DNA of 64,000 bases from an uncultured Gammaproteobacteria bacterium (GTDB lineage Bacteria; Patescibacteriota; Patescibacteriia; Patescibacteriales; UBA12465), in contig CAYYDR010000001.1 in assembly GCA_964470695.1 (NCBI GenBank), positions 593,997 to 657,996 on the forward strand, read 5' to 3'. Below are positions 1,066-24,104 of the stretch, in pieces. A model generated the notes under the pieces. It ran no database searches, had not been told where the DNA came from, and saw only the letters and a list, made by a program, of their open reading frames with translations. Positions within the stretch are counted from its first letter, which is position 1, and each line of letters opens with the position of its first letter. A program made the position numbers and the translations under genes.

Positions 1066-3582
1066 ATGTCTTTGACCATTACAAAAATTGACGGCCAAAA
1101 GGAAATCTTTGACGCCGATAAGATCAATCGCGCTATCGCGGCCGCCTGCGAAGGGCTCAGCGAACCAAGCGCTAAGATAACGCAAATCGCTAGCGAAACC
1201 GAGTTAACGCTCTACGATGGCATTACTACCAGAGAATTAGACCAAGCCGTTATCGGAGCGGCCGTCCAAAATATCAAGGACGATCCTGATTTTGATATCA
1301 TTGCCGAACGCTTGCTACTGAAAACTATTTATAAGGAGGTGCTGGGCGACTTTATTGACACAGCTGATTTAGATAAACAGCACCAAGCCGGTTTTCTTGA
1401 CTATATTGAGCGCGGTCTAAAAGAAAATTTACTATCCCCGGAATTAAAAGTTTTTGATTTTACTAAATTATCCAGCGTCTTAGACAGAGGACGCGATTCC
1501 CTGCTAACTTACACTAGCTTAGCGACCATGAAGCATCGCTACTTGGCTAAGGGAGCGGATCAAAAGCTCCGCGAAACGCCGCAATATTTCTGGATGCGCG
1601 TCGCTATGGGCATGGCATACAAAGAAAAAAATGCTACCGAAATGGCCCAAAAATTTTATGATAAAATGTCGCGCCTAGAATATGTGGCCGGCGGCTCTAC
1701 TAATATCAACGCTGGCGGACCAACGCCACGGCTGAGTAATTGCTTTATTTTAGACATGGAAGATGATATCTCCCATATCGGTAAAACCGTCGCTGATGTC
1801 ATGAAATTATCTAAAGCCACGGGCGGTATTGGGCTAGCCGTCACTAAGCTCCGCGCCAATGGCTCGCCAATTAATACCAATAACACTTTCTCATCCGGCC
1901 CCGTCCCCTTCCTCCATATTATTGACTCAACTATCCGCGCTATTTCCCGCGCCGGTAAAAAAATGGGGGCGCTCTGCTTCTATATGGAAAACTGGCACAT
2001 TGACTTCCAAGATTTTTTGGACTTAAAACAAAATGCCGGCGATGATTACCGCCGCACCAGAACCGCTGATACCGCGGTTTGGATTTCTGACGAATTCATG
2101 AAGCGCGTTAAAAATAATGAGGCCTGGTATCTGTTTGATCCACAGGAAACGCCTGATTTAGTTGAGCTTTACGGCGCGGCGTTTAGCAAGAGATATCAAG
2201 AATACATAGACTTAGCCGAGGCCGGCAAAATGCGGATATTTAAAAAAATGCCCGCCACCGAACAATTCAATAATATTATTGTTTCCTTGCAAGGGACCTC
2301 GCACCCTTGGCTGACCTGGAAAGATACTATTAACGTCAGGGCCTTAAATAATAATACCGGCCCGATTTATAGTTCTAATCTATGCACAGAAATAACTTTG
2401 CCAGCCAATAAAGATAATGTCGCGGTCTGCAATCTATTATCAGTAAATCTTGCCCGCCATTTAAACGAGAAAAATGAGATTGACTGGAATAAGTTAGAAG
2501 AAAGCGTTAATTTAGGCATACGCCAATTAGATAATTTAGTGGACATTAACCAGCCGCCTATTGCCGAGGCGAAAAATTTTGATAGCCATAACCGCGCTGT
2601 CGGCCTTGGAGTTATGGGGTTAGCGGACATGCTTGAACAGAAAAATCTCGCTTATGACAGCTCGGAGGCCTATGAACTAACTGATGAAATAATGGAATTC
2701 ATCAGTTATCAGGCTATTAAAACTAGCGCCGCTCTTGCTCAAGAAAAAGGCAGTTATGATAACTTCGCCGGCTCCCTCTGGTCCCAGGGGTATGTGCCAT
2801 ATGATACGCTTGATAGGCTAGAAAAAGACCGCCAGCTGCCTCTAAGCGTTAAGAAGCAAGCCAGCAAGTTAGATTGGGATAGCTTAAGAAAATCTGTTAA
2901 GGCCGGGATGCGTAATTCCACTCTCTTAGCCATTGCGCCAACCGCTAATATCGGACTCATCGCCGGAACTTCAACCGGCATAGACCCGCGCTTCGCCCTT
3001 ATTTTCAGCCGCAATACCCTGTCTGGCAAATACTTAGAACTTAATTTTAATTTAGTTAAAAAACTTAAAGCTCTAAATCTCTGGGAAAAAACTCGGGAGA
3101 GTATTTTAATGACTCAAGGCGACCTGACTGATATTGAAGAAATCCCCGAGGAAATAAAATCTGTTTATAAAGATTCCTTCTCGGTCAATCCGGAGGCCTT
3201 CTTGGAAGTAGCGGCCCGAGCTCAGAAATGGGTTGACCAGGCCATTAGCCGCAACATGTATTTAACTACCCGCGATACGGAAGAAATCATGAAAATATAT
3301 CTCAGCGCCTGGGAAAAAGGCTTAAAAACAACCTATTACCTGCACATGAAGCCCCGCCATACCGCTGAACAAAGCACTACTAAAGTTAATAAATCTAGTG
3401 CTATCGGTAAAAGAGGTTTCGGCGCAGTTAGTAGCCAGAGAACAGAAAATGAAGCTGATAAGGCTAACCAAGAACTTAAGGCTAGCCCGTCGCTCGCCAA
3501 AGAAGCTAGCACTACTCCTGCTCCTGGCCAGGCCTGCCCAATTGATCCGCAGGAAAGACTCTTATGTGATAGCTGCCAATAA
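1066..3582 (+). CDS. nrdA: Ribonucleoside-diphosphate reductase, class I alpha subunit
   Basis: 838 aa. N-terminal ATP-cone (ITKIDGQKEIFDADKINRAI), catalytic loop SNLCTEITLP, C-terminal Cys pair CDSCQ. Immediately followed by nrdB. Confidence 0.95.
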   Translation: MSLTITKIDGQKEIFDADKINRAIAAACEGLSEPSAKITQIASETELTLYDGITTRELDQAVIGAAVQNIKDDPDFDIIAERLLLKTIYKEVLGDFIDTADLDKQHQAGFLDYIERGLKENLLSPELKVFDFTKLSSVLDRGRDSLLTYTSLATMKHRYLAKGADQKLRETPQYFWMRVAMGMAYKEKNATEMAQKFYDKMSRLEYVAGGSTNINAGGPTPRLSNCFILDMEDDISHIGKTVADVMKLSKATGGIGLAVTKLRANGSPINTNNTFSSGPVPFLHIIDSTIRAISRAGKKMGALCFYMENWHIDFQDFLDLKQNAGDDYRRTRTADTAVWISDEFMKRVKNNEAWYLFDPQETPDLVELYGAAFSKRYQEYIDLAEAGKMRIFKKMPATEQFNNIIVSLQGTSHPWLTWKDTINVRALNNNTGPIYSSNLCTEITLPANKDNVAVCNLLSVNLARHLNEKNEIDWNKLEESVNLGIRQLDNLVDINQPPIAEAKNFDSHNRAVGLGVMGLADMLEQKNLAYDSSEAYELTDEIMEFISYQAIKTSAALAQEKGSYDNFAGSLWSQGYVPYDTLDRLEKDRQLPLSVKKQASKLDWDSLRKSVKAGMRNSTLLAIAPTANIGLIAGTSTGIDPRFALIFSRNTLSGKYLELNFNLVKKLKALNLWEKTRESILMTQGDLTDIEEIPEEIKSVYKDSFSVNPEAFLEVAARAQKWVDQAISRNMYLTTRDTEEIMKIYLSAWEKGLKTTYYLHMKPRHTAEQSTTKVNKSSAIGKRGFGAVSSQRTENEADKANQELKASPSLAKEASTTPAPGQACPIDPQERLLCDSCQ

Positions 3583-8794: not shown

Positions 8795-8822
8795 TTGACA
8801 TAACTCTGATATTTGCTAAAAT
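8795..8822 (+). promoter_or_regulatory. Sigma-70-type promoter candidate for the tRNA-Asn gene
   Basis: TTGACA (8795-8800)-16 nt-TGcTAAAAT (8814-8822), about 50 nt upstream of the tRNA 5' end. Confidence 0.45.
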
Positions 8823-8874
8823 ATACATACAAAATGTTTTAGAACATTTTTGTTTTTTGGAGACAATTTAATAT

Positions 8875-9179
8875 TCCCGGGTAGCGCAGCGGTAGCGCAG
8901 TTGGCTGTGAACAATAAACGCAGCTTCCTCAGGCAACTGAGGTCGAATAACAAGGTGAATTGCTGGAAGCCTAAATCCGCAAGGATATGGTAATCAGCAG
9001 CCAAGCCCTGATTTTCAGGGAAGGTTCAGAGACTATCCCGAAAGGGAGTACTTCTCTACTTTAGAGCAGGAAGCGCCTTGCATCCGTTTTAACGGATGAT
9101 GATATAGTCCACCCCATTAGGAAACTATTGGATAAGTGTAACCAATTGGTCGTCGGTTCGAATCCGACCCCGGGAGCCA
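8875..9179 (+). tRNA. tRNA-Asn(GUU) interrupted in the anticodon loop by a group I intron; exons 8875-8908 and 9139-9179, CCA encoded
   Basis: Joined exons fold as a cloverleaf. Acceptor TCCCGGG/CCCGGGA, D stem GCGC/GCGC, anticodon stem GTTGG/CCAAT, loop CT-GTT-AA, T arm GTCGG-TTCGAAT-CCGAC, discriminator G then CCA. U1-A72, G73 and the CUGUUAA loop mirror E. coli tRNA-Asn. Confidence 0.85.
8909..9138 (+). ncRNA. Group I self-splicing intron (230 nt, no ORF)
   Basis: Conserved elements P AATTGCTGGAAG (8958-8969), Q AATCAGCAGCC (8992-9002), R GTTCAGAGACTAT (9024-9036), S GATGATATAGTCC (9098-9110). P1 pairs exon GGCTGT with GCAGCT (8920-8925), giving U.G at the 5' splice site. P7 is GACTA/TAGTC. 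GNRA-capped P2, P5, P8 and P9. Terminal G at 9138. Confidence 0.85.
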
Positions 9180-9180
9180 T

Positions 9181-9216
9181 TAAAAAATAGGCTAAAGTTA
9201 GTCTATTTTTTGTTAT
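9181..9216 (+). repeat. 36-nt hairpin/terminator module, copy A (terminator of the tRNA gene)
   Basis: taaaaaaTAGGCTaaagtTAGTCTAttttttgttat. 34/36 identical to 14223-14258. Hairpin plus T-run immediately after the tRNA CCA. Confidence 0.7.
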
Positions 9217-9220
9217 ATTA

Positions 9221-9249
9221 TTGACAAAGTTATAATAATATGATATAGT
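9221..9249 (+). promoter_or_regulatory. Sigma-70-type promoter candidate for ORF 9370
   Basis: TTGACA (9221-9226)-17 nt-TATAGT (9244-9249). Confidence 0.5.
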
Positions 9250-9283
9250 AATTTAATTGTTATTTAACAAAATTTGATAAAAA

Positions 9284-9335
9284 CTTATTGAATTATCTAA
9301 GTCTATTTAATTGTAGATTGAGATAATTCAATAAG
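9284..9335 (+). promoter_or_regulatory. Perfect 15-bp inverted repeat in the leader of ORF 9370 (operator or leader hairpin)
   Basis: CTTATTGAATTATCT (9284-9298) and AGATAATTCAATAAG (9321-9335) are exact reverse complements separated by 22 nt, between the promoter candidate and the start codon. Confidence 0.5.
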
Positions 9336-9369
9336 TAATAATTAAATCAAAAAATCAGAAAGGTGCGAA

Positions 9370-10083
9370 ATGAAAGTAATTATCTTAACAGTCGAAACAG
9401 CTCCTTTAGTGCTTGAAGCGCTAAGTGAAATCACAAAAAACCAGTATTTTACGGTTGAAAATGGATATTCAGAAGAAGAAGTTAACCCATTAAGCAAACC
9501 CCAGCAAATTAACTGGTCAACTGAAAGCAAGAATACTTTTAGGAACAACTCAGCCAGGAGAGGAAACGATGATAATTTTGATATCATTCTTCTCTCTAGG
9601 ACTCCATCCCATTCGGTAATAGTATTCGAAAAAGGGAGTAAGGTTTATCTATCTGAAAATCAGGTGATTTTCCAAAGACCCATGAGTGAAGTCTCTCGTC
9701 GCGGAAAATTCGGATACCAAAAAATTTCTCTTGAAACTAAGAATGCAGAGCAGAAGTTTGTCGCCTCCGTCCAGACTCTTAATGATGAAAACAAAAGAAT
9801 TTATGATGTGGGAGAAGAAAATGAATGCTCAGATTTTTTCAAAGAAGAGGCTGAAGATAAGATGGATAACATCATTGCCCAATCAAAAATAACTGGAAAT
9901 CCTCATTATAATGTATATGACGAAAAGCATTGCGCTACAAAAATATACTTCTATATTAAGGATTACAAGAGTCAAAAGGCTGCCGAAGAGGCCTGTTATG
10001 AATACAGGAACTCGCTACCTGGGTCAACGCTAAAAGAGATATGCCTAGACCACACGAATAAAGGCTTTTTCTTCTTTATGTAA
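9370..10083 (+). CDS. Hypothetical protein
   Basis: 237 aa ORF with AAAGGTG Shine-Dalgarno. No motif recognised. Confidence 0.6.
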   Translation: MKVIILTVETAPLVLEALSEITKNQYFTVENGYSEEEVNPLSKPQQINWSTESKNTFRNNSARRGNDDNFDIILLSRTPSHSVIVFEKGSKVYLSENQVIFQRPMSEVSRRGKFGYQKISLETKNAEQKFVASVQTLNDENKRIYDVGEENECSDFFKEEAEDKMDNIIAQSKITGNPHYNVYDEKHCATKIYFYIKDYKSQKAAEEACYEYRNSLPGSTLKEICLDHTNKGFFFFM

Positions 10084-10129
10084 TTCAATATTTGAACAAC
10101 ATTTTATTCACAAAACAGGGAATGTTCGT

Positions 10130-10459
10130 ATGAAAAGGTTAAATAAAGTTCTCGGAAACATAAATATATGTTTCGTGATAATTATTTCTCAGCTTATTTC
10201 AATTTTACTTCTCGGCGTGGCGATTACAATTTATTTGTTCCAGAAGCCAATACCGCAGAATGATTATCTTAAAGTTGCTGTTATTGCTTCAGTTGCATTT
10301 GTACTTGGCACAATGGTCACCTACATAGTGAAGAAGGGATTCATAAAGTCAGGTCGGAATGACTTAGATAAAGCTGCTTTAGCGTTATCTCTGCTTGGAA
10401 CGAGCAGCACATTTGCCATCTCTTTAAGCCTATATTTGTGTTATTTTGTAATTTTTTAG
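10130..10459 (+). CDS. Hypothetical small membrane protein (3 TM)
   Basis: 109 aa, three hydrophobic helices. Follows ORF 9370 in the same unit. Confidence 0.55.
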   Translation: MKRLNKVLGNINICFVIIISQLISILLLGVAITIYLFQKPIPQNDYLKVAVIASVAFVLGTMVTYIVKKGFIKSGRNDLDKAALALSLLGTSSTFAISLSLYLCYFVIF

Positions 10460-10495
10460 TAATCAATAACATAAGATAGCTATTTCAAATCTTTA

Positions 10496-10532
10496 AGGCC
10501 AGGCGTTTAGCAATAAATATCCTGGTCTTTTT
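10496..10532 (+). terminator. Possible intrinsic terminator after ORF 10130
   Basis: AGGCCAGG-17 nt loop-CCTGGTCTtttt. The long loop weakens the call. Confidence 0.4.
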
Positions 10533-10634
10533 AATATAAATTAATATTATTATATATATTGTGCGATTAATTTGAATTCCTCGCCTATCTTAACCCAATT
10601 CTGAGTTCTAAATGCGTCCACGAAAGGGAGATAC

Positions 10635-10663
10635 TTGACAAAAATAATACTGTATGGTATTAT
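10635..10663 (+). promoter_or_regulatory. Sigma-70-type promoter candidate for ORF 10705
   Basis: TTGACA-17 nt-TGgTATTAT. Confidence 0.5.
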
Positions 10664-10704
10664 TTTTTATTACATTAACAATTCAGTAAATTGGAGAACA
10701 TTAA

Positions 10705-11220
10705 TTGGAAAAGCACAGAATACTTGAAGCCCTGTCCGCGGGGTCGCTGATGTTATCCAAATATTTTTTAGCGATATCAAGCATATTCGGCTGGTGGTTA
10801 TCTATAATTGGATATACACTAGCTACTTTGCTAAATATCAAAATAAAATTAAGGATAGTATCAACAATTAGCGTCGGCCTAGCGCTATTATCTGTTTACG
10901 GCCTATACAAATGGCTTAACGATGTGCCAGGATTACAGTTTGTGGACTTTGCGATTATTGCCATTAGTATTTTGTTCGCATTAGTTCTGACAATCACTGA
11001 AGCAAAACAGCAAAAGCAATTCTGGATCGTCCAAAGCATTTGTACGATAGCCTTCAGCTCGGCCTTTATCTTACTAGGCATGAAGATGGAAATCGGCTGG
11101 TATGCCCTGCTAATTGGGCATATTAATAATACCTATTTGTACTACAAAAAGGAGGCCTTCATCATAGCCTTCATGCAAATTGTTAGTATCATAATTGTAC
11201 TAACAAAACTGTTAGGATAA
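10705..11220 (+). CDS. Polytopic membrane protein, weak PnuC-like (nicotinamide riboside transporter) resemblance
   Basis: 171 aa with TTG start, 8 nt after GGAGA. 5-6 TM helices. LLSVYGLYKW and a repeated two-half architecture recall PnuC, but this is unverified. Confidence 0.5.
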   Translation: MEKHRILEALSAGSLMLSKYFLAISSIFGWWLSIIGYTLATLLNIKIKLRIVSTISVGLALLSVYGLYKWLNDVPGLQFVDFAIIAISILFALVLTITEAKQQKQFWIVQSICTIAFSSAFILLGMKMEIGWYALLIGHINNTYLYYKKEAFIIAFMQIVSIIIVLTKLLG

Positions 11221-11247
11221 TTGAAAATTGGCAAACATTTTTTTAAA

Positions 11248-11277
11248 GGGGACTGTTTTTAAACAGTCCCTATTTTA
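11248..11277 (+). terminator. Intrinsic terminator after ORF 10705
   Basis: GGGACTGTTTttaAAACAGTCCCtatttt. Confidence 0.75.
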
Positions 11278-11298
11278 TTAGAGAAACAATAAATACGT

Positions 11299-11327
11299 TT
11301 GACAAAAATATAGCAAAATGCTATATT
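11299..11327 (+). promoter_or_regulatory. Sigma-70-type promoter candidate for ORF 11383-ridA unit
   Basis: TTGACA-17 nt-TGcTATATT. Confidence 0.5.
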
Positions 11328-11382
11328 TTTTTGTTATAGATCTTTAAAAAATTTATTAATTCACAAACAAAAAGGAAGAACA

Positions 11383-11904
11383 ATGCCACAAACAGCAACA
11401 CTTATCGTATGTCACCATAGTGACAACGCCCGCGTCCTTAAGGAAATGGAAGGATCGGGCAGCAGATATTTTCCAGCAGTTGGTGAAACTTCAAACAGAG
11501 TTGAAATTATTCCGGCAACAATGGAACTCTTGCAAAAAGAGCTAGCTGAACTAGGCCTGATAATAGAAGACCTGCCGACAATTGAAAAGGTTGCCAAAAA
11601 ATTCAGGCATGAACTCATCAGCCGACCAGGCGGAAGTTTAGCGGCGGATGGAGATACAAACTCTGGTCTATACGAAGTCATAATAGCTAATTATAGACTA
11701 CTAGACGCTAAGTTGGAAAACTTCGGCCCAACGAGTCGGCTGCTAAAGCAGACTAAAATAAGCAAGGAGGACATCGGAAAAATATTTTATTCCGATCCAG
11801 AAAAGAAAATCGGATTTATCATCAGCAACGAAGACTTTCTGAAGATGAACCCAGATGACGTTGGCGGCTGGATAAGAATTAGCGAATTAGATGTAAATCC
11901 TTAA
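11383..11904 (+). CDS. Hypothetical protein
   Basis: 173 aa with AAGGAAG Shine-Dalgarno. No motif recognised. Confidence 0.6.
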   Translation: MPQTATLIVCHHSDNARVLKEMEGSGSRYFPAVGETSNRVEIIPATMELLQKELAELGLIIEDLPTIEKVAKKFRHELISRPGGSLAADGDTNSGLYEVIIANYRLLDAKLENFGPTSRLLKQTKISKEDIGKIFYSDPEKKIGFIISNEDFLKMNPDDVGGWIRISELDVNP

Positions 11905-11980
11905 AATTCTCCGATTATGCTATAATTAACAATATCCACATAAAACACTAATTATAAACCATTAAAAAAGGTATATTACT

Positions 11981-12370
11981 ATGCCAAAAAAACAACTTCC
12001 CATCGCAGCAGACAACAGTCTTCCCTTTTCTCCAGTAGTGCAAATCGGCAACCATTTCCATTTTTCCGGAACAGTTCCCAACTTAGGCGAAGACAAAAAG
12101 CCTATCTCTGGAACGCTTGCTTTGCAGACCGAAGAGGTTCTGGCCAAGATGAAAAAGTCTCTTAGTGACTGCGGACTGTCTTTCAACGACTTGTTTCATG
12201 TCACAATCATGCTCAGCGGCTCTATGGATGGCTATAATGAAGTTAACAAAATCTACTCCGAAGCTTTAAAGGAAGTAGAAATTAAGCCAGCCAGAAAAGC
12301 TTTTGCTGTTGCAGGCCTACCCTTCGGCGCTTTGATTGAAATAGAATACGAAGCAGTTAAGCAGGACTAG
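11981..12370 (+). CDS. ridA: RidA/YjgF/L-PSP family reactive-intermediate deaminase
   Basis: 129 aa. PFSPVVQIGNHFHFSG, TEEVLAKMKKSL, PARKAFAVAGLPFGALIEIEYEA match the YjgF/RidA fold pattern. Confidence 0.8.
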   Translation: MPKKQLPIAADNSLPFSPVVQIGNHFHFSGTVPNLGEDKKPISGTLALQTEEVLAKMKKSLSDCGLSFNDLFHVTIMLSGSMDGYNEVNKIYSEALKEVEIKPARKAFAVAGLPFGALIEIEYEAVKQD

Positions 12371-12390
12371 CCATAAATACCTGTTTTCTT

Positions 12391-12422
12391 AAGGCTCAGT
12401 AGACTAATCTGAGCCTTTTTTA
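12391..12422 (+). terminator. Intrinsic terminator after ridA
   Basis: AAGGCTCAGtagactaatCTGAGCCTTtttt. Confidence 0.75.
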
Positions 12423-12503
12423 ATTAAAAAAATTAATTGTAATTTCTAATAATTAAAGGTAAAATTTCTTTAAAGACAGCTTATTTCAACTACTTATTAC
12501 TTT

Positions 12504-13742
12504 ATGTGGCTAGCTTTTAAAAAAGCCCTAGATAATGATTTCTTCCGGTTAATTAATAACTGGATTTTAGGAATTACCATATTAGCAATTTTCCTCTCCG
12601 CCTGGCTCAGACCAAACTATTTATCATTTCAATTAGAGAGCTTCCCGCCTGATTTAGTGCACTTCATTTTTTTTCTTTTTTATATTCTACTGCTCAGTTA
12701 TACCATTCTAAGCTTCACTACTATAAAAAGAACTAAATTAAGTCTTTATTTATACGGTCTGGCTATTCTATTACTTACTATTTCTCCTCCCTTATTATCC
12801 ATGGATATAGGAGGCTATATTTTAGGAGCAAAAAATATTATTTCCCCTGATAGCCGGACTTATTTAGACGCTCTGCGCGGCGCCGCTCCCTGGGCCAAAG
12901 AAATGTCTAATATCTGGTGGCTAGATTACCCAACCGTCTATGGCCCAACTTTTCAGACTATTGCTCTAACTAGTCTAATTGCTTCGCCGTTCGGGCTTTT
13001 AGCGACAATATTAATCTATAAATTAATAGGGCTGGCGGGATTTTTGTCTGTCCTTTATTTATTTTGGCTCATCGCGCGAGACCGGGGGCTTGAGGAAAGA
13101 AGACTCTGGCTATTAGCCCTTAACCCCGCCCTGCTCATCAATTGGCTTCTAGAGGGGCATAACGATATTTTTATCGCCCTCGGCCTATTAGGAACGCTTT
13201 ACTGCCTAGATAGAAAAAAACTCTGGCCCACCTGGTTATTATTTACGCTGACTATTTTTATTAAATATACCGCTCTAATCTTTTCGCCGATTTTATTTTT
13301 TAAAAACAATAAATTTAGTTTAAAAAATGCCTTAGGATTTTTACTCTTAACCGGCTTAGCTTTCCTGGCCTTCTTTAAAATAAGCGGCCTAAGCTTAAGT
13401 CTTTTTTCTCATAATCTATTTTTCTTAAACCAGTGCTTTTATCATTGTTCGCCCTTAGTCTATTTATTTCAATTCACTGGCTCCGCCCAATTCATCATTC
13501 GCCTGGCCTTGTTCGCCATTCTATACGTTCTAATTACCTGGCGTTATTTATATAAACAGACTGATTATTTAAAATTTATTTTCTGGTCCGGCCTAGCCTT
13601 ATTTTTTGTCCAAACCACCTGGCTCACGCCCTGGTATCCGACTATAATTATTCCGATTGGATTGCTCATAAAAGACAAAAAATACCTCTACTTAGTCATC
13701 TTGGTCAGCTGGTATTCTCTTTTGCATTATTTCGGCCTCTAG
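12504..13742 (+). CDS. Polytopic integral membrane protein, GT-C/DUF2029-like glycosyltransferase candidate
   Basis: 412 aa, more than 10 TM helices. LNPALLINWLLEGHNDIF loop resembles GT-C mannosyltransferase-like families. Unverified. Confidence 0.6.
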   Translation: MWLAFKKALDNDFFRLINNWILGITILAIFLSAWLRPNYLSFQLESFPPDLVHFIFFLFYILLLSYTILSFTTIKRTKLSLYLYGLAILLLTISPPLLSMDIGGYILGAKNIISPDSRTYLDALRGAAPWAKEMSNIWWLDYPTVYGPTFQTIALTSLIASPFGLLATILIYKLIGLAGFLSVLYLFWLIARDRGLEERRLWLLALNPALLINWLLEGHNDIFIALGLLGTLYCLDRKKLWPTWLLFTLTIFIKYTALIFSPILFFKNNKFSLKNALGFLLLTGLAFLAFFKISGLSLSLFSHNLFFLNQCFYHCSPLVYLFQFTGSAQFIIRLALFAILYVLITWRYLYKQTDYLKFIFWSGLALFFVQTTWLTPWYPTIIIPIGLLIKDKKYLYLVILVSWYSLLHYFGL

Positions 13743-13814
13743 AAGAAAAGAACTGACTGATGCGTATTAGTAATCAAGAGACTAAGAATCTTAATTTTTA
13801 TTTTAAAAAAATCT

Positions 13815-14192
13815 ATGGAACTGAGCAAAAAAATGGCGGGCGGCCTTAAAATTGCAGCAGCCGTCTTAATCGCGCTTCTTTTACTGGCTATTGGTATGGC
13901 CTTAGGCGCCCGCTGGAGTAATCATGGCGGATATAGCCACAAAGGCTTTACTTGCGGCCGAGATAACGGATTTGTTAGAGGAGGCGAAAGAGGCGAGAAA
14001 GGTTGTAATAAACAATTTAAAATGATGGGCTGTCAGGGCGGAGAGAATAATATTCAAAATGATTCTATTCATGCCGGTTGCCAATTTAACCCAGCGAGTA
14101 ACATTAATCAAATTAATAACCCTATTACTCCTAGCGAAACTCCTGATCTAAACGTAGTCCCAGTCCCAGTTATTCCAAACCCTGTCCAATAA
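13815..14192 (+). CDS. Hypothetical signal-anchored Gly/Cys/Asn-rich small protein
   Basis: 125 aa. N-terminal TM/signal (AAAVLIALLLLAIGMALGA), then a low-complexity region with 4 Cys and a Pro-rich tail. Confidence 0.5.
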   Translation: MELSKKMAGGLKIAAAVLIALLLLAIGMALGARWSNHGGYSHKGFTCGRDNGFVRGGERGEKGCNKQFKMMGCQGGENNIQNDSIHAGCQFNPASNINQINNPITPSETPDLNVVPVPVIPNPVQ

Positions 14193-14222
14193 TTTAGCTT
14201 AGAGCAAAGAAAATCCATAAAC

Positions 14223-14258
14223 TAAAAAATAGGCTAAAATTAGCCTATTTTTTGTTAT
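14223..14258 (+). repeat. 36-nt hairpin/terminator module, copy B
   Basis: taaaaaaTAGGCTaaaatTAGCCTAttttttgttat. 34/36 identical to 9181-9216. Acts as terminator for ORF 13815. Confidence 0.7.
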
Positions 14259-14295
14259 TTTGTTATTCTAAACTTGCTACTAATTTTAATAACTA

Positions 14296-14324
14296 TTGAC
14301 TTTTTTAAATATATATGTTATTAT
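14296..14324 (+). promoter_or_regulatory. Sigma-70-type promoter candidate for the 14381-15354 gene pair
   Basis: TTGACT-17 nt-TGtTATTAT, followed by a 9-bp leader hairpin AATTATAGG/CCTATAATT (14330-14352). Confidence 0.5.
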
Positions 14325-14380
14325 TTAATAATTATAGGAAAGCCCTATAATTGTCCTTACACAACAAAGATGGAGAGAAC

Positions 14381-14875
14381 ATGTTACAATCAATATCCAA
14401 TTTCTATGAAGACCATAAAGTAGGAATCTGGTCGAGCGTTGTTATCTTTTTTGTAGTAGCATTTATCGGCTTGATTATCTGGCGCGCTGCCTGGGTAACC
14501 TTTGTCGATAAGCATGAGTATGGTTTTGTTTTTGACAAATTATCCGGCAAAGTTTACCCTGTAGGGCACACCGGATATGTCGTAGCCAATCCATTTTTCT
14601 ACGGTGTTCATACAATAGATACACGCCCCTATCAGGTTTCCATCAGTGCGAACGAGCGTATCTTAAATGCTAAACTTGTTCGCTTTAATATTCATGGAAT
14701 TAAGACATTCGTTTCTTGGCACGGCGTATCTGCTGGTGACGAAGTTAGCAATCTGAAAGAAATATTAAAATGCTATGCTTTTGACCGCGATGAAGGTCGT
14801 GACTGCCCTTTCCTGGAAGTAGTAGGCGTTCTGGCTCCAAACCAAGGCATGCCTCTTAATCAGGAGGATAAATAA
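14381..14875 (+). CDS. Membrane-anchored protein, SPFH/Band-7-like N-terminal region; paralog A
   Basis: Track start TTG 14351. ATG 14381 follows GGAGAG. One TM helix, then YGFVFDKLSGKV..GYVVANPFFYGVHTIDTRPYQV, which resembles the first strands of SPFH domains. About 30 percent identity to the next ORF over the core. Confidence 0.6.
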   Translation: MLQSISNFYEDHKVGIWSSVVIFFVVAFIGLIIWRAAWVTFVDKHEYGFVFDKLSGKVYPVGHTGYVVANPFFYGVHTIDTRPYQVSISANERILNAKLVRFNIHGIKTFVSWHGVSAGDEVSNLKEILKCYAFDRDEGRDCPFLEVVGVLAPNQGMPLNQEDK

Positions 14876-15354
14876 TGATGTTTAGAACAGTCTGGAAATC
14901 GTTAGCCGCGCTAATGAAAAGACGCTGGTTTAAAATATCAACCTTCATTATCTGTGTCATCTTATCCTTTTACATGATGTGCCTTAACTATGCTCAACCA
15001 TCTGATTTACCAATCGCCCGTGACATATTTTCGGGAGAAATGTGGGATCAGGGGGGCGGCTGGCACTTAACAGCGCCCTGGGTACAAGTATCAATCATTG
15101 ATACTCGCCCAATGCGTGTAGAGGTTGCTTCTGCGGGGCATGGTTTTTCCGCCAAATTAATACAATTTGACAGAAAGTATTGGCAAGACTTCATCAACAC
15201 AGAAGGTTTCTATTATTACTGGTGGGCTAATCGTTTTTCCATTAACTTCGGTTATAGTGAAGAACATCGTGGCGTTAGGGATATTATGCGCGGATATGCT
15301 TACAGCGCGAAACATTACCCATTCCTTAAAATTTTAAACGAGTATCAGCAATAG
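14875..15354 (+). CDS. Membrane-anchored protein, SPFH/Band-7-like N-terminal region; paralog B
   Basis: 159 aa. Start overlaps the upstream stop (TAATG), with AGGAGG 8 nt upstream. One TM helix. GWHLTAPWVQVSIIDTRPMRV..AKLIQF aligns with paralog A. Confidence 0.6.
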   Translation: MMFRTVWKSLAALMKRRWFKISTFIICVILSFYMMCLNYAQPSDLPIARDIFSGEMWDQGGGWHLTAPWVQVSIIDTRPMRVEVASAGHGFSAKLIQFDRKYWQDFINTEGFYYYWWANRFSINFGYSEEHRGVRDIMRGYAYSAKHYPFLKILNEYQQ

Positions 15355-15366
15355 CGGTATTCGGCA

Positions 15367-15407
15367 AAGTCCGGGAAAAGAGTCCAATCTTTACTCGGAC
15401 TTTTTTC
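15367..15407 (+). terminator. Intrinsic terminator after ORF 14875
   Basis: AAGTCCG-22 nt-CGGACTTttttt. Confidence 0.5.
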
Positions 15408-15432
15408 TTTGTAAAAAATAATGTATTTGACA

Positions 15433-15467
15433 AAAAAAAGACCGTGGTCATAAACCCGGTCTTTTTC
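15433..15467. terminator. Bidirectional terminator (serves rpoD on minus strand)
   Basis: aaaaaaAGACCGtggtcataaaccCGGTCTtttt, between convergent units. Confidence 0.6.
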
Positions 15468-15488
15468 ATATAGTAAACTATAAATCTT

Positions 15489-16799
15489 TTAGTAATCTCT
15501 TAACTTCTCTAAACCCTTAAACTTTCTAATTTTCTCTAGTGCCTTAGATTCAATCTGGCGAATACGCTCGCGAGTAACCTCAAACTCTTGGCCGACTTCT
15601 TCTAAAGTATGGGCGACGCCATCAATTAAACCAAAGCGCATTTCTAAAATTTTCTGCTCGCGCGGCGAAAGCTGGGCGACAATATTTTTTACATAATCCT
15701 TTAAAAGCTGCAAAGCGGCCGCTCTATCAGGCGTAACATTTTTAACATCCTCAATAAAGTCTTCTAGAGTTGAGTCTTCATCATCATCACCAATAGTCGT
15801 TTCTAAAGAAATAGTGTCCTGAGAAATCTTCATAATATAGCGCACCTTATCAAGTTCTTCGCCCATTTCGGAAGCAATTTCATCGGCTAACGGCTCGCGG
15901 CCTAATTCCTGGATTAAATTGCGCTGGACCTGCTGGAACTTATTAATGGTTTCTACCATATGGACCGGAATACGAATGGTTCTAGACTGATCAGCTAAGG
16001 CGCGGGTAATGGCCTGACGTATCCACCAGGTCGCGTAAGTAGAAAATTTATAGCCTTTGCGATATTCAAATTTTTCCACTGCTCTAAATAAACCAATATT
16101 CCCTTCTTGAATCAAGTCTAATAAGCTCATACCCTTAGCGCCGGCGAACTTTTTAGCAATGGATACGACCAAGCGCAAGTTAGCTTCAATAATTTTTTTC
16201 TCGGCTTCTTTATCGCCCTTTTCTTTACGCTTCGCTAGCTCTACCTCTTCGTCGCCACTCAGCAAAGGAACCTTGCCAATTTCTTTTAAGTACATCTGGA
16301 TAGAATCAGCGCTTAACTTTGACAAGTCAACGTTAAGGGCGTTCTGGTGCGCTAAGGCGCGTCCGGTTAAGGCTGGCTCAGCCGCTTTCTTTTCGGCCGT
16401 ATCTAAAATACGCCCGGAGTCTTCCATAATTCTCACGCCGCTTTTCTGTAAGTCGCCTAAAAAAACATCATAATCATAAACATATTCCTCAACCTCAGGA
16501 AATAAATATAAAAGCTCAGTTTCGGTAATGAAGCCCCTCAGACGCCCTTTATCAATCAGATTTTGAAGCTGCTCCGGGGTCGGTTTAACGGCCGGACGCG
16601 GCTCTCTCTCATGGGCTACGTGTTTAACTTTTTTAGCGCTATGGCGGCTAAAATCTTTTTTAGATTTATTATGCTTGCTAGCCTTATTATGCTTAGCAGG
16701 CGCCGCTTTCTTAGCCGGACTATGCTTAGCCGGTTTTTTAGGCGCCGCTTTAGCGGCCGCAGTTTTCTTAGTTTTTTGCTTGCTAGTTTTAGTAGCCAT
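15489..16799 (-). CDS. rpoD: RNA polymerase primary sigma factor with Lys/Ala-rich N-terminal tail
   Basis: 436 aa. Regions 1.2-4.2: [68 protein letters not shown]. Confidence 0.95.
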
Positions 16800-22715: not shown

Positions 22716-24104
22716 TTAAAATTCAGCATTCTTCGGCGTGCGCGGAAAAGGAATAACATCACGGATATTGGCCATACCAGAAATATACATGAGTAGTCTT
22801 TCAAAGCCTAAGCCAAAGCCCGCATGTTTAACCGAGCCGTATTTTCGTAAATCTAAATACCAAGCGTAATCTTCTTTCTTAAGACCCATTTCTTCCATGC
22901 GCTTCTCTAAATTCTCTAAGCGCTCTTCCCTCTGGCTGCCGCCGATTATTTCGCCTATGCCCGGCGCCAGTAAATCCATAGCCGCTACAGTCTTACCGTC
23001 TTCATTCAGGCGCATATAGAAAGCCTTGATATCCTTAGGATAATCAGTCACAAAAACCGGCTTCTGGAAAACTTTATCAGTTAAATAACGCTCATGTTCA
23101 GTCTGTAAATCAATACCCCATTTAACCGGATAAACAAACTTCTCGCCTGACTTCTCTAAAATTTCAATCGCTTCCGTATAAGTAACGCGGCCGAAATCAG
23201 AATTCAAAATATTATTTAGGCGCTCACTAATTCCCGGATCAATAAACTTATTAAAGAAAGCCATTTCTTCCGGCAATTCTTTTAAGACATAATCAATCAG
23301 GTACTTCAACATCTTCTCGGCTAAATTCATGTCGTCAGCTAAATCAGCGAAGGCCATTTCCGGCTCCATCATCCAGAATTCAGAAGCATGGCGAGTCGTA
23401 TTAGAATTTTCGGCCCTAAAAGTCGGGCCAAAAGTATAAACTTTATTTAAGCCCATAACAAGCGCCTCAGCATTTAACTGGCCGCTGACGGTGAGTCCCG
23501 CCTTTTTACCAAAAAAATCTTCAGCGTAATTTATTTCTCCCTTAGGATCGCGGAGGGGATTTTTTAAATCTAAAGTCGTAACCTGGAACATTTCACCCGC
23601 GCCCTCGCAGTCGCTCGTAGAAATTATCGGGGTATGGATATAAGCAAAACCCTCTTCCTGAAAAAATTTATGAATCGCAAAACTTAAAACAGATCGTAAA
23701 CGAAAAACTGCGGAAAAGGTATTGCTGCGCCCTCTTAAATGCGCGATGGTGCGTAAAAATTCAAAACTATGTTTTTTCTTCTGGAGCGGATAATCGGCCG
23801 GGGCTTCATTAATAATATTAATTTTCTCGGCTTTAAGTTCAAAAGCCTGGCCGGCCGCCGGCGATTCTACTAAGGTTCCCTCAACTTCTAAAGAAGAGCC
23901 AACGGCAATATTTTCTACAGCCGCAAAATTACTTAAATCAGAAGCAAATACAATCTGCAGACCCTTAAAAAATGAGCCGTCATTAATCTCAATAAAGCCA
24001 AATTCCTTAGAGCTGCGGGCGGTTCTAACCCAGCCAGCCACGGTTATTTTTTGGTTAAGATGAGAAGCGGTATCGCGATATAAGGTTTTTATAGTTATAT
24101 TCAT
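22716..24104 (-). CDS. asnS: Asparagine--tRNA ligase
   Basis: 462 aa, class IIb. [33 protein letters not shown]. Confidence 0.93.

Follow-up and report, generated by a model that had tools for sequence, protein, structure and literature searches.

Does a 230-nucleotide (nt) insert inside the anticodon leave a bacterial tRNA gene functional, and does such a gene represent something new? The question arises from a 64,000-nt stretch of DNA, hereafter the window (contig CAYYDR010000001.1 of assembly GCA_964470695.1, positions 593,997 to 657,996), in which an original prediction, made from the letters alone, had reported a split tRNA-Asn gene. Our analysis gives us high confidence that this gene is a tRNA-Asn(GUU) divided between U35 and U36 by a 230-nt group I intron of IA-type architecture, which contains no open reading frame (ORF) and is predicted to be self-splicing. 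As detailed below, the locus is a further example of a class that has already been published and experimentally validated.

The 5' exon (8875-8908, on the + strand, as are all features of the locus described here) comprises 34 nt and holds the 5' strand of the acceptor stem, the D arm, the 5' strand of the anticodon stem, and C32, U33, G34, and U35. It ends in CUGU, and its last nucleotide, U8908, occupies position -1 at the 5' splice site. The intron occupies positions 8909-9138 and terminates in G9138, the intron 3' end known as omegaG. The 3' exon (9139-9179, 41 nt) begins with UAA and ends with GCCA; it contributes U36, A37, and A38, the 3' strand of the anticodon stem, the variable loop, the T arm, the 3' strand of the acceptor stem, the discriminator G73, and an encoded CCA (9177-9179). 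When joined, the exons form a canonical 75-nt cloverleaf with U1-A72 and G73, which ARAGORN calls tRNA-Asn(gtt). Under default settings, ARAGORN found no tRNA anywhere in the 64-kb window, and ARAGORN and Rfam together gave no tRNA within it other than the split gene. The insert contains no ORF, its longest stop-free stretch being 46 codons. Thus, the exon coordinates and insert length, the CU-GUU-AA loop of the cloverleaf, the U1-A72 pair and discriminator, the single tRNA in the window, the lack of an ORF, and the terminal G were all read correctly in the original prediction.

The position of the exon junction is supported by alleles that carry no intron. Uninterrupted tRNA-Asn genes at two metagenomic loci (L234 and L150) are identical to the predicted spliced product at 75 of 75 positions, and those at three others (L189, L228, and L215) are identical at 73-74 of 75. 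This full-length match sets G9138 as the intron boundary, and the 35/36 junction is supported because only the 35/36 register reproduces the uninterrupted allele, CUGUUAA. The intron-less loci share with the window the region upstream of the tRNA and the neighboring rpoD gene, at 74-83% nucleotide identity, and so belong to intron-free relatives. Splicing between anticodon positions 35 and 36, as originally proposed, is the only register that matches these alleles, and it places the U.G pair of the splice site at U35.

The covariance-model search that the original prediction had suggested returned a match to RF00028 (Intron_gpI) at 8826-9131, with 89.2 bits (gathering score, 50; E = 1.8e-21), and this was the sole Rfam family at the gathering threshold in the 64 kb. 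The Rfam alignment puts its first 46 model positions on the AT-rich leader (8826-8873) that precedes the tRNA, and it passes over the genuine 5' exon, P1, and P2 as inserted sequence. We rejected the P1 and P2 placed in this leader: the hairpin there is insignificant (z = -1.4), so the 5' part of the match is an alignment artifact, and boundaries drawn from the hit only would consequently be off by ~80 nt on the 5' side and 7 nt on the 3' side. The secondary structure described here was instead built by combining the Rfam alignment with the fold and with a comparison of relatives. In this structure, all 72 of the 72 modeled pairs are standard in the window copy, and the invariant core residues of the family are present. 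Compared with shuffled sequence, the fold of the precursor has z = -5.5, and its minimum-energy form already holds P1 (with U8908 opposite G8920), P2, P4 through P6, P8, and P9.

At the 5' splice site, the exon sequence GGCUGU (8903-8908) pairs with the guide GCAGCU (8920-8925) to form P1, in which the wobble U8908.G8920 lies at the splice site; the pair G8909-C8919 lengthens this helix. P2 is the hairpin CCUCAG-GCAA-CUGAGG (8927-8942), whereas P3 joins the distant strands CAAGGUG (8951-8957) and CGCCUUG (9074-9080). The next domain consists of P4 (8961-8966 with 8994-8999), P5 (8969-8971 with 8989-8991), P5a (8975-8978 with 8983-8986, GCAA loop), P6 (9000-9002 with 9023-9025), and P6a (9006-9011 with 9015-9020). 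The 5' strand of P7 is made up of G9029, a bulged A9030, and GACUA (9031-9035), and its 3' strand, UAGUCC (9105-9110), lies inside the S element, GAUGAUAUAGUCC. Identification of P7 rests on the Rfam alignment of the R and S elements, and G9031-C9109 would be the guanosine-binding pair. Between P7 and the 3' strand of P3 are P7.1 (9036-9039 with 9044-9047, GAAA loop) and P7.2 (9051-9057 with 9063-9069). The core is completed by the P8 hairpin CAUCCG...CGGAUG (9081-9098), by P9.0 (A9111-U9137 and C9112-G9136), and by P9 (9114-9120 with 9125-9131, GAAA loop). In the Michel-Westhof classification, subgroup IA is marked by two additional helices, P7.1 and P7.2, that separate P7 from the 3' strand of P3, and the window intron has both of them in this position. 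The elements that the original prediction listed are likewise all in place, namely, the P, Q, R, and S elements, the P4 (UGCUG/CAGCA) and P7 (GACUA/UAGUC) pairings, and four GNRA caps (GCAA in P2 and P5a, GAAA in P7.1 and P9); the P1 pairing with its U.G at the splice site appears in both the fold and the model.

Relatives of the intron were collected with a scan pattern that ran from the S element across omegaG and the first three nucleotides of the 3' exon to the T arm. The pattern matched once in the window and in none of 100 shuffles; it matched seven loci in IMG/VR and at least 120 loci in a set of one genome per GTDB species. Among the matches listed, 117 could be delimited by ARAGORN, and 105 of these are tRNA-Asn(GUU) genes split after CUGU by an intron whose final G precedes UAA. 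The pattern itself demanded the terminal G and the UAA, whereas it left the CUGU exon end and the Asn identity free. GCAG is the commonest guide among these 105 family members, and U occupies position 1 of the tRNA in 104 of them. According to the titles of the 120 genome loci listed, 85 belong to Patescibacteria or the Candidate Phyla Radiation (CPR), 12 are unnamed, and 23 carry other names.

The fold is conserved across this family. We aligned 36 ORF-less relatives sharing the core type of the window intron with MAFFT and counted pairs explicitly, a procedure that under-counts helices beside variable loops (P5a, inner P8, and P9). Standard pairs fill 93.0% of cells, compared with 35-42% when the partners are slid by 1-3 columns. 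Two-sided changes are found in 47 of the 72 pairs (478 cells), and none of 500 column shuffles matched any of the observed covariation measures. Compensatory changes occur in P2, P3, P4, P6a, P7.1, P7.2, P8, P9.0, and P9. They affect all six pairs of P2 (95% of cells paired), three of the four pairs of P7.1 (100% of cells paired), six of six in P7.2 (96% of cells paired), and five of six in P8. In P3, where 98% of cells are paired and the two strands covary, the changes include C-G to U-A and A-U to G-C, and P4 shows several double substitutions (for example, UGCUGG/UCAGCA to UCGGGG/UCCCGA). P5, P5a, and P6 were also scored in the covariation count. The guide remains GCAGCY whatever the identity of anticodon-stem positions 30-31 in the family loci, so P1 consists of four conserved pairs plus zero to two lineage-specific ones and provides no compensatory evidence.

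The same site also hosts a different ribozyme. In 19 of the 105 loci listed (e.g., L017, L023, L029, L041, and L044), an intron at 35/36 has a second core type, in which the 3' strand of P3 directly follows P7 (AGAGACUAGAUACC...) and P7.1 and P7.2 are missing. At least two ribozyme lineages therefore share an identical insertion site. In addition, the scan pattern matched metagenome-assembled genomes (MAGs) labeled as Omnitrophota (L019, L021, L025, L060, and L092), Elusimicrobia (L077 and L079), Planctomycetota (L039 and L050), and Bacteroidetes (L107), although at L025, L050, and L107 ARAGORN made no call and the split gene is unconfirmed. These matches could be genuine occurrences outside Patescibacteria or could reflect binning contamination; a few occurrences outside this phylum have been reported (PMC13011429).

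The host of the window copy is probably itself a member of the Patescibacteria (CPR), as indirect evidence from the neighboring genes suggests. The dnaG-rpoD block and the genes beyond it show 67-79% nucleotide identity over up to 7 kb with five loci (L065, L070, L115, L129, and L045), all of them titled Patescibacteria group bacterium. The nearest intron among the loci listed is that of L065, which is 92% identical to the window intron. An exact copy of the NrdB protein encoded in the window was present on just two metagenome contigs.

How does the locus relate to what has been described before? The original prediction held that tRNA-Asn is not among the well-described hosts of group I introns, a view that is now outdated. 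Williams (bioRxiv 2020, 10.1101/2020.01.27.920355) extended the intron-split bacterial tRNA types from the four classical ones to 21, and, as reported by Nakagawa et al. (mSystems 2026, PMC13011429; preprint July 2025), these types include Asn.4Ug, sometimes miscalled Thr.2Ug. In their survey of 95 complete Patescibacteria genomes, Nakagawa et al. identified 22 tRNA genes that contain an intron; of these, 15 are tRNA-Asn(GUU) with the intron at 35/36 (PMC13011429). In their analysis, 25 of 28 introns at 35/36 were assigned to subgroup IA with subgroup-specific covariance models, intron length ranged from 184 to 894 nt (mean, 257), and most members lacked an endonuclease gene, while four Asn introns encoded HNH enzymes (PMC13011429). 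For the tRNA-Asn of GCA_016700035.1, accurate GTP-dependent self-splicing was demonstrated in vitro, with the junction sequenced and an omegaG-to-C mutant as control (PMC13011429).

The window locus shows every defining feature of this class that can be tested computationally. It agrees with the class in host tRNA, anticodon, phylum, and splice sites (exon end CUGU, intron-final G, then UAA), in its IA-type core with P7.1 and P7.2, in its length of 230 nt, in its lack of an endonuclease, and in the Thr(UGU) miscall that it elicits. Identity to the validated GCA_016700035.1 precursor is 90% for the exons and 70% for the intron; the anticodon arm is the same, as is the context in which CUGU precedes the intron and the intron-final GUG precedes UAACC. 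The intron is 73-74% identical to those of GCA_016700315.1 and GCA_016699245.1, and across four published members the identities are 67-74% for the intron and 81-90% for the exons, with the same splice-site context. In its P7.1/P7.2 region, the window intron is closer to the Paceibacteria intron of GCA_016699245.1 than to the tested Saccharimonadia intron of GCA_016700035.1.

By comparison, the classical IC3 tRNA introns interrupt tRNA-Leu(UAA) in cyanobacteria and plastids, tRNA-fMet, tRNA-Ile(CAU) in Azoarcus, and tRNA-Arg(CCU) in Agrobacterium. Like the window intron, they are small ORF-less ribozymes in the anticodon loop, flanked by the tRNA body, with a 5' exon U in the U.G pair of P1 and omegaG at the 3' end. 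However, they sit at 34/35, 33/34, or 36/37 (PMC13011429) rather than at 35/36, their host isoacceptors differ, and their IC3 cores lack the P7.1 and P7.2 helices that the window intron carries. It therefore falls outside the classical IC3 group, given the differences in insertion site and P7.1/P7.2 architecture. Group I introns of phages, found in psbA of Synechococcus phage S-SRM01 and in the RNA polymerase gene of Schitoviridae phages, have a P3-P7 core 75-85% identical to that of the window intron over 100-185 nt. They adjoin homing-endonuclease genes, as do the HNH-bearing relatives of the window intron, but they interrupt protein-coding genes rather than a tRNA, and their P1 and guide are unrelated to those of the window.

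Several points weigh against our interpretation. The omegaG of the 105 relatives was fixed by the scan pattern (GTAA), which makes its universality among them circular. P7 is invariant in all 36 aligned sequences and is therefore without covariation evidence. A search for P10, in which the 3' exon (UAACC) would pair with the P1 loop/guide region (GAACAAUAAAC), found none; from work on the Anabaena pre-tRNA, tRNA-embedded introns reportedly rely on the anticodon stem instead of P10. The assignment of the host to Patescibacteria rests on MAG titles and nucleotide collinearity. Finally, splicing of the window copy itself is something that we infer from its sequence.

The flanking sequences suggest that the gene is expressed on its own. 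Upstream lies a putative sigma-70-type promoter (8795-8822) consisting of TTGACA (8795-8800), a 16-nt spacer, and a TG-extended TAAAAT (8817-8822), with 11 of 12 consensus matches and TG before the -10 element. It would set the start of transcription ~45 nt upstream of the tRNA, and the segment from 8795 to 8912 is conserved in the intron-less relatives. Downstream lies a terminator-like hairpin followed by a U run (9181-9212; -12.4 kcal/mol, z = -6.2), which would presumably end the transcript; a rule-based terminator scan missed it because its stem has fewer than three G-C pairs. Given the promoter and the trailer hairpin, the tRNA looks like an independent, expressed transcription unit.

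Our analysis shows the exon junction and the anatomy of this locus, that it belongs to the family, and that its fold is conserved. By analogy with the validated member (identity of 90% in the exons and 70% in the intron), the window copy would catalyze guanosine-dependent self-splicing. In the predicted pathway, transcription would begin at the promoter that belongs to the gene (8795-8822) and stop at the trailer hairpin (9181-9212). P7 would bind an exogenous guanosine through the putative pair G9031-C9109, and this guanosine would attack after U8908. G9138, positioned by P9.0 and P9, would then take the same site, and the 3' OH of U8908 would attack after G9138. The exons would thereby be ligated to give the anticodon loop CUGUUAA, and normal end processing would yield a tRNA-Asn chargeable by the asparaginyl-tRNA synthetase (AsnRS) encoded in the window. 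The gene for this enzyme, asnS (asparagine--tRNA ligase, 22716-24104, - strand), scores 693 bits against a cutoff of 414 for NCBIfam NF003037 and contains the Pfam tRNA-synt_2 domain and an OB fold. The earlier claim that the same genome encodes AsnRS is thus confirmed, and since the window does so, the point about direct charging stands. The further point of the original prediction, that all Asn decoding would hinge on splicing, holds if the genome has no other tRNA-Asn gene.

If the intron splices, why is it kept? It might be retained to regulate the supply of tRNA-Asn, in response to GTP/Mg2+ status or through a protein cofactor, rather than as a neutral selfish insertion, an idea that Nakagawa et al. 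raised speculatively (PMC13011429). Its wide distribution and persistence in very small genomes would fit such a role (we list at least 105 loci, and ~40% of Patescibacteria genomes carry group I introns; PMC13011429), as would the fact that most copies lack a homing endonuclease. However, the sequence indicates no sensor or regulatory module, and endonuclease-bearing relatives point to a mobile-element history. Moreover, similarly related organisms share identical tRNA-Asn genes with or without the intron, and this patchy presence fits the gain and loss of a dispensable element. We therefore regard retention for regulation as doubtful.

Alternatively, the intron could be a decayed relic and the locus a tRNA pseudogene, with Asn decoding supplied by a gene elsewhere. 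The window copy is known from its sequence, 64 kb of the genome are visible, and intron-less alleles occur in related organisms, all of which leave some room for this explanation. Against it, every helix of the family consensus is intact, with no nonstandard pair among those modeled and no loss of invariant core residues; the exons are 100% identical to uninterrupted tRNA-Asn genes; and the near-consensus promoter and the strong trailer hairpin have been retained. In addition, the split genes are the sole tRNA-Asn copy in the published complete genomes (PMC13011429). A dead relic is thus very improbable, and we return to an intact split tRNA-Asn as the preferred interpretation.

A last alternative concerns the register of the junction. 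In its intron-aware mode, ARAGORN labels the gene tRNA-Thr(tgt) i(33,230), and not Asn, and it labels 71 of the 105 split tRNA-Asn loci listed as Thr(tgt) by the same 2-nt shift. Under this assignment, the gene would be a tRNA-Thr(UGU) with the intron at 33/34: the first exon would end at U8906, the intron would span 8907-9136, and the second exon would start with UGUAA. Because the intron ends in GUG, this register is possible, and in it, too, the loop has 7 nt and G is the last intron nucleotide. The ribozyme, however, points to the other register. U8906 (position 33) faces A8922 in P1 and no G, and it is U8908 that makes the U.G wobble. Across the family, the GCAG(C/U) guide pairs with C32-U33-G34-U35, so that the wobble falls at U35. 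The G-U before omegaG pairs with the A-C after P7 to form P9.0, which covaries among the 36 relatives (C-G to U-A in seven sequences and to A-U in two). The structure of the ribozyme thus accounts for the GUG ending, which is no second splice site; as a consequence of P9.0, introns usually end in GUG, and the ARAGORN register can slip by 2 nt.

The tRNA itself argues in the same direction. The window tRNA has U1-A72 and G73, whereas true intron-less tRNA-Thr(UGU) genes in the fetched loci start with G1 (GCACCCG..., GCCGGTG..., and GCCAACG..., with G1-C72). The best matches of the spliced sequence in an annotated reference of all complete Escherichia coli genomes and plasmids are all annotated as tRNA-Asn (90% over 60 nt). 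Among the intron-less tRNAs in the fetched loci, a set in which the compared sequences held no tRNA-Asn, the top similarity is to Lys(UUU), at 75%. We also scanned metagenome contigs for intron-less copies of the anticodon arm with both registers allowed (GCAGTTGGCTKKTAACCAATTGGTC); the at least 134 matches listed comprise 116 Lys(UUU) and 18 Asn(GUU) alleles and no Thr(UGU) allele. The same Thr(UGU) 33/34 miscall by ARAGORN/tFind has been documented and shown to be an artifact, since the sequenced spliced product has the 35/36 junction (PMC13011429). A better fit of the exons to another isoacceptor, which the original prediction had named as a way in which it could fail, was thus tested for the Thr register in five independent ways and rejected, and we give this assignment next to no credence. 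As a side observation, position 34 is the sole difference between the 25-nt anticodon arm of the split tRNA-Asn and that of the metagenome tRNA-Lys(UUU) genes that make up 116 of the 134 matches listed (loci L130-L249), many of them in tandem copies.

The practical consequence of the split tRNA-Asn concerns annotation. Default tRNA finders miss the gene, and intron-aware ones assign the wrong amino acid (Thr), so that such a genome would be scored as lacking tRNA-Asn and as less complete. Biologically, the locus adds one more very small genome that appears to route the decoding of one amino acid through RNA-catalyzed splicing. Since this point has already been made and tested by others, the locus opens no new question here, and what novelty remains lies in the side observations on mobility.

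These observations begin with the long members of the family. Among the window-type introns listed, 19 of 70 measure 534-630 nt (e.g., L080, L038, L094, and L006), and 32 of the 117 callable loci have introns longer than 450 nt. In five long introns that we translated, the additional ~320 nt are inserted into the P1 loop, after the 5' splice site and before the guide. A protein of ~105-115 amino acids with the HNH-type motif CxxCGY...HHxD...CANCH is encoded by four of these insertions; in that of L013, only the C-terminal part of the HNH frame is open. The ribozyme part of L080 is 79% identical to the ORF-less window intron. The HNH-bearing long introns agree with the four HNH-bearing Asn introns of the published survey (PMC13011429).

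Two further loci carry the split gene beside phage-like or recombinase genes. The first (L003; IMGVR_UViG_3300028299_000003, 76.6 kb) encodes tail-fiber-like and baseplate-like proteins as well as HNH and LAGLIDADG endonucleases. Its tRNA cluster (Asp, Leu, Asp, Arg, and Arg) is succeeded by a tRNA-Asn into which a 226-nt group I intron is inserted at 35/36. This locus is plausibly a phage contig, and PMC13011429 makes no mention of a phage-borne copy of the split tRNA-Asn. The second (L009; IMGVR_UViG_3300025600_000123, ~1217-3165) encodes a 565-amino-acid large serine recombinase (phrog_95, 249 bits). The end of the recombinase gene abuts or overlaps the 3' exon of a tRNA-Asn split by an intron 85% identical to that of the window. 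A Zot-like ATPase is encoded nearby, and the locus looks like an integrated element that uses the tRNA-Asn as its attachment site.

Considering the patchy presence of the intron, its HNH-bearing relatives, the phage-like contig, and the recombinase of the second locus, one may ask whether the tRNA-Asn 35/36 intron still moves actively among Patescibacteria, carried by phages and integrative elements. We consider this unlikely. If true, it would contradict the published inference of limited horizontal transfer; the published survey covered complete bacterial genomes and did not address these mobility points (PMC13011429).

The surroundings of the gene also differ from those in its relatives. 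In related organisms, with the intron (L063) or without it (L189 and L234 among the loci considered here), the tRNA-Asn gene directly follows dnaG-rpoD on the same strand. The rpoD gene of the window (15489-16799, - strand) is 6.3 kb away from the tRNA-Asn and convergent with it, and genes for a PnuC-like transporter, a RidA-like protein, and an MptA/B-like membrane protein lie between them. This arrangement indicates a probable local rearrangement or insertion beside the window tRNA (9180-16799). Lastly, 12 of the 23 genome loci listed under other names are co-assembly MAGs that carry the split tRNA-Asn and are titled "uncultured Gammaproteobacteria" (L017, L042, L062, L063, L073, L080, L087, L097, L108, L116, L121, and L128). 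In at least eight of them, rpoD is 66-79% identical at the nucleotide level to that of the window and of Patescibacteria-titled MAGs, and the "Gammaproteobacteria" titles are therefore doubtful and look wrong.

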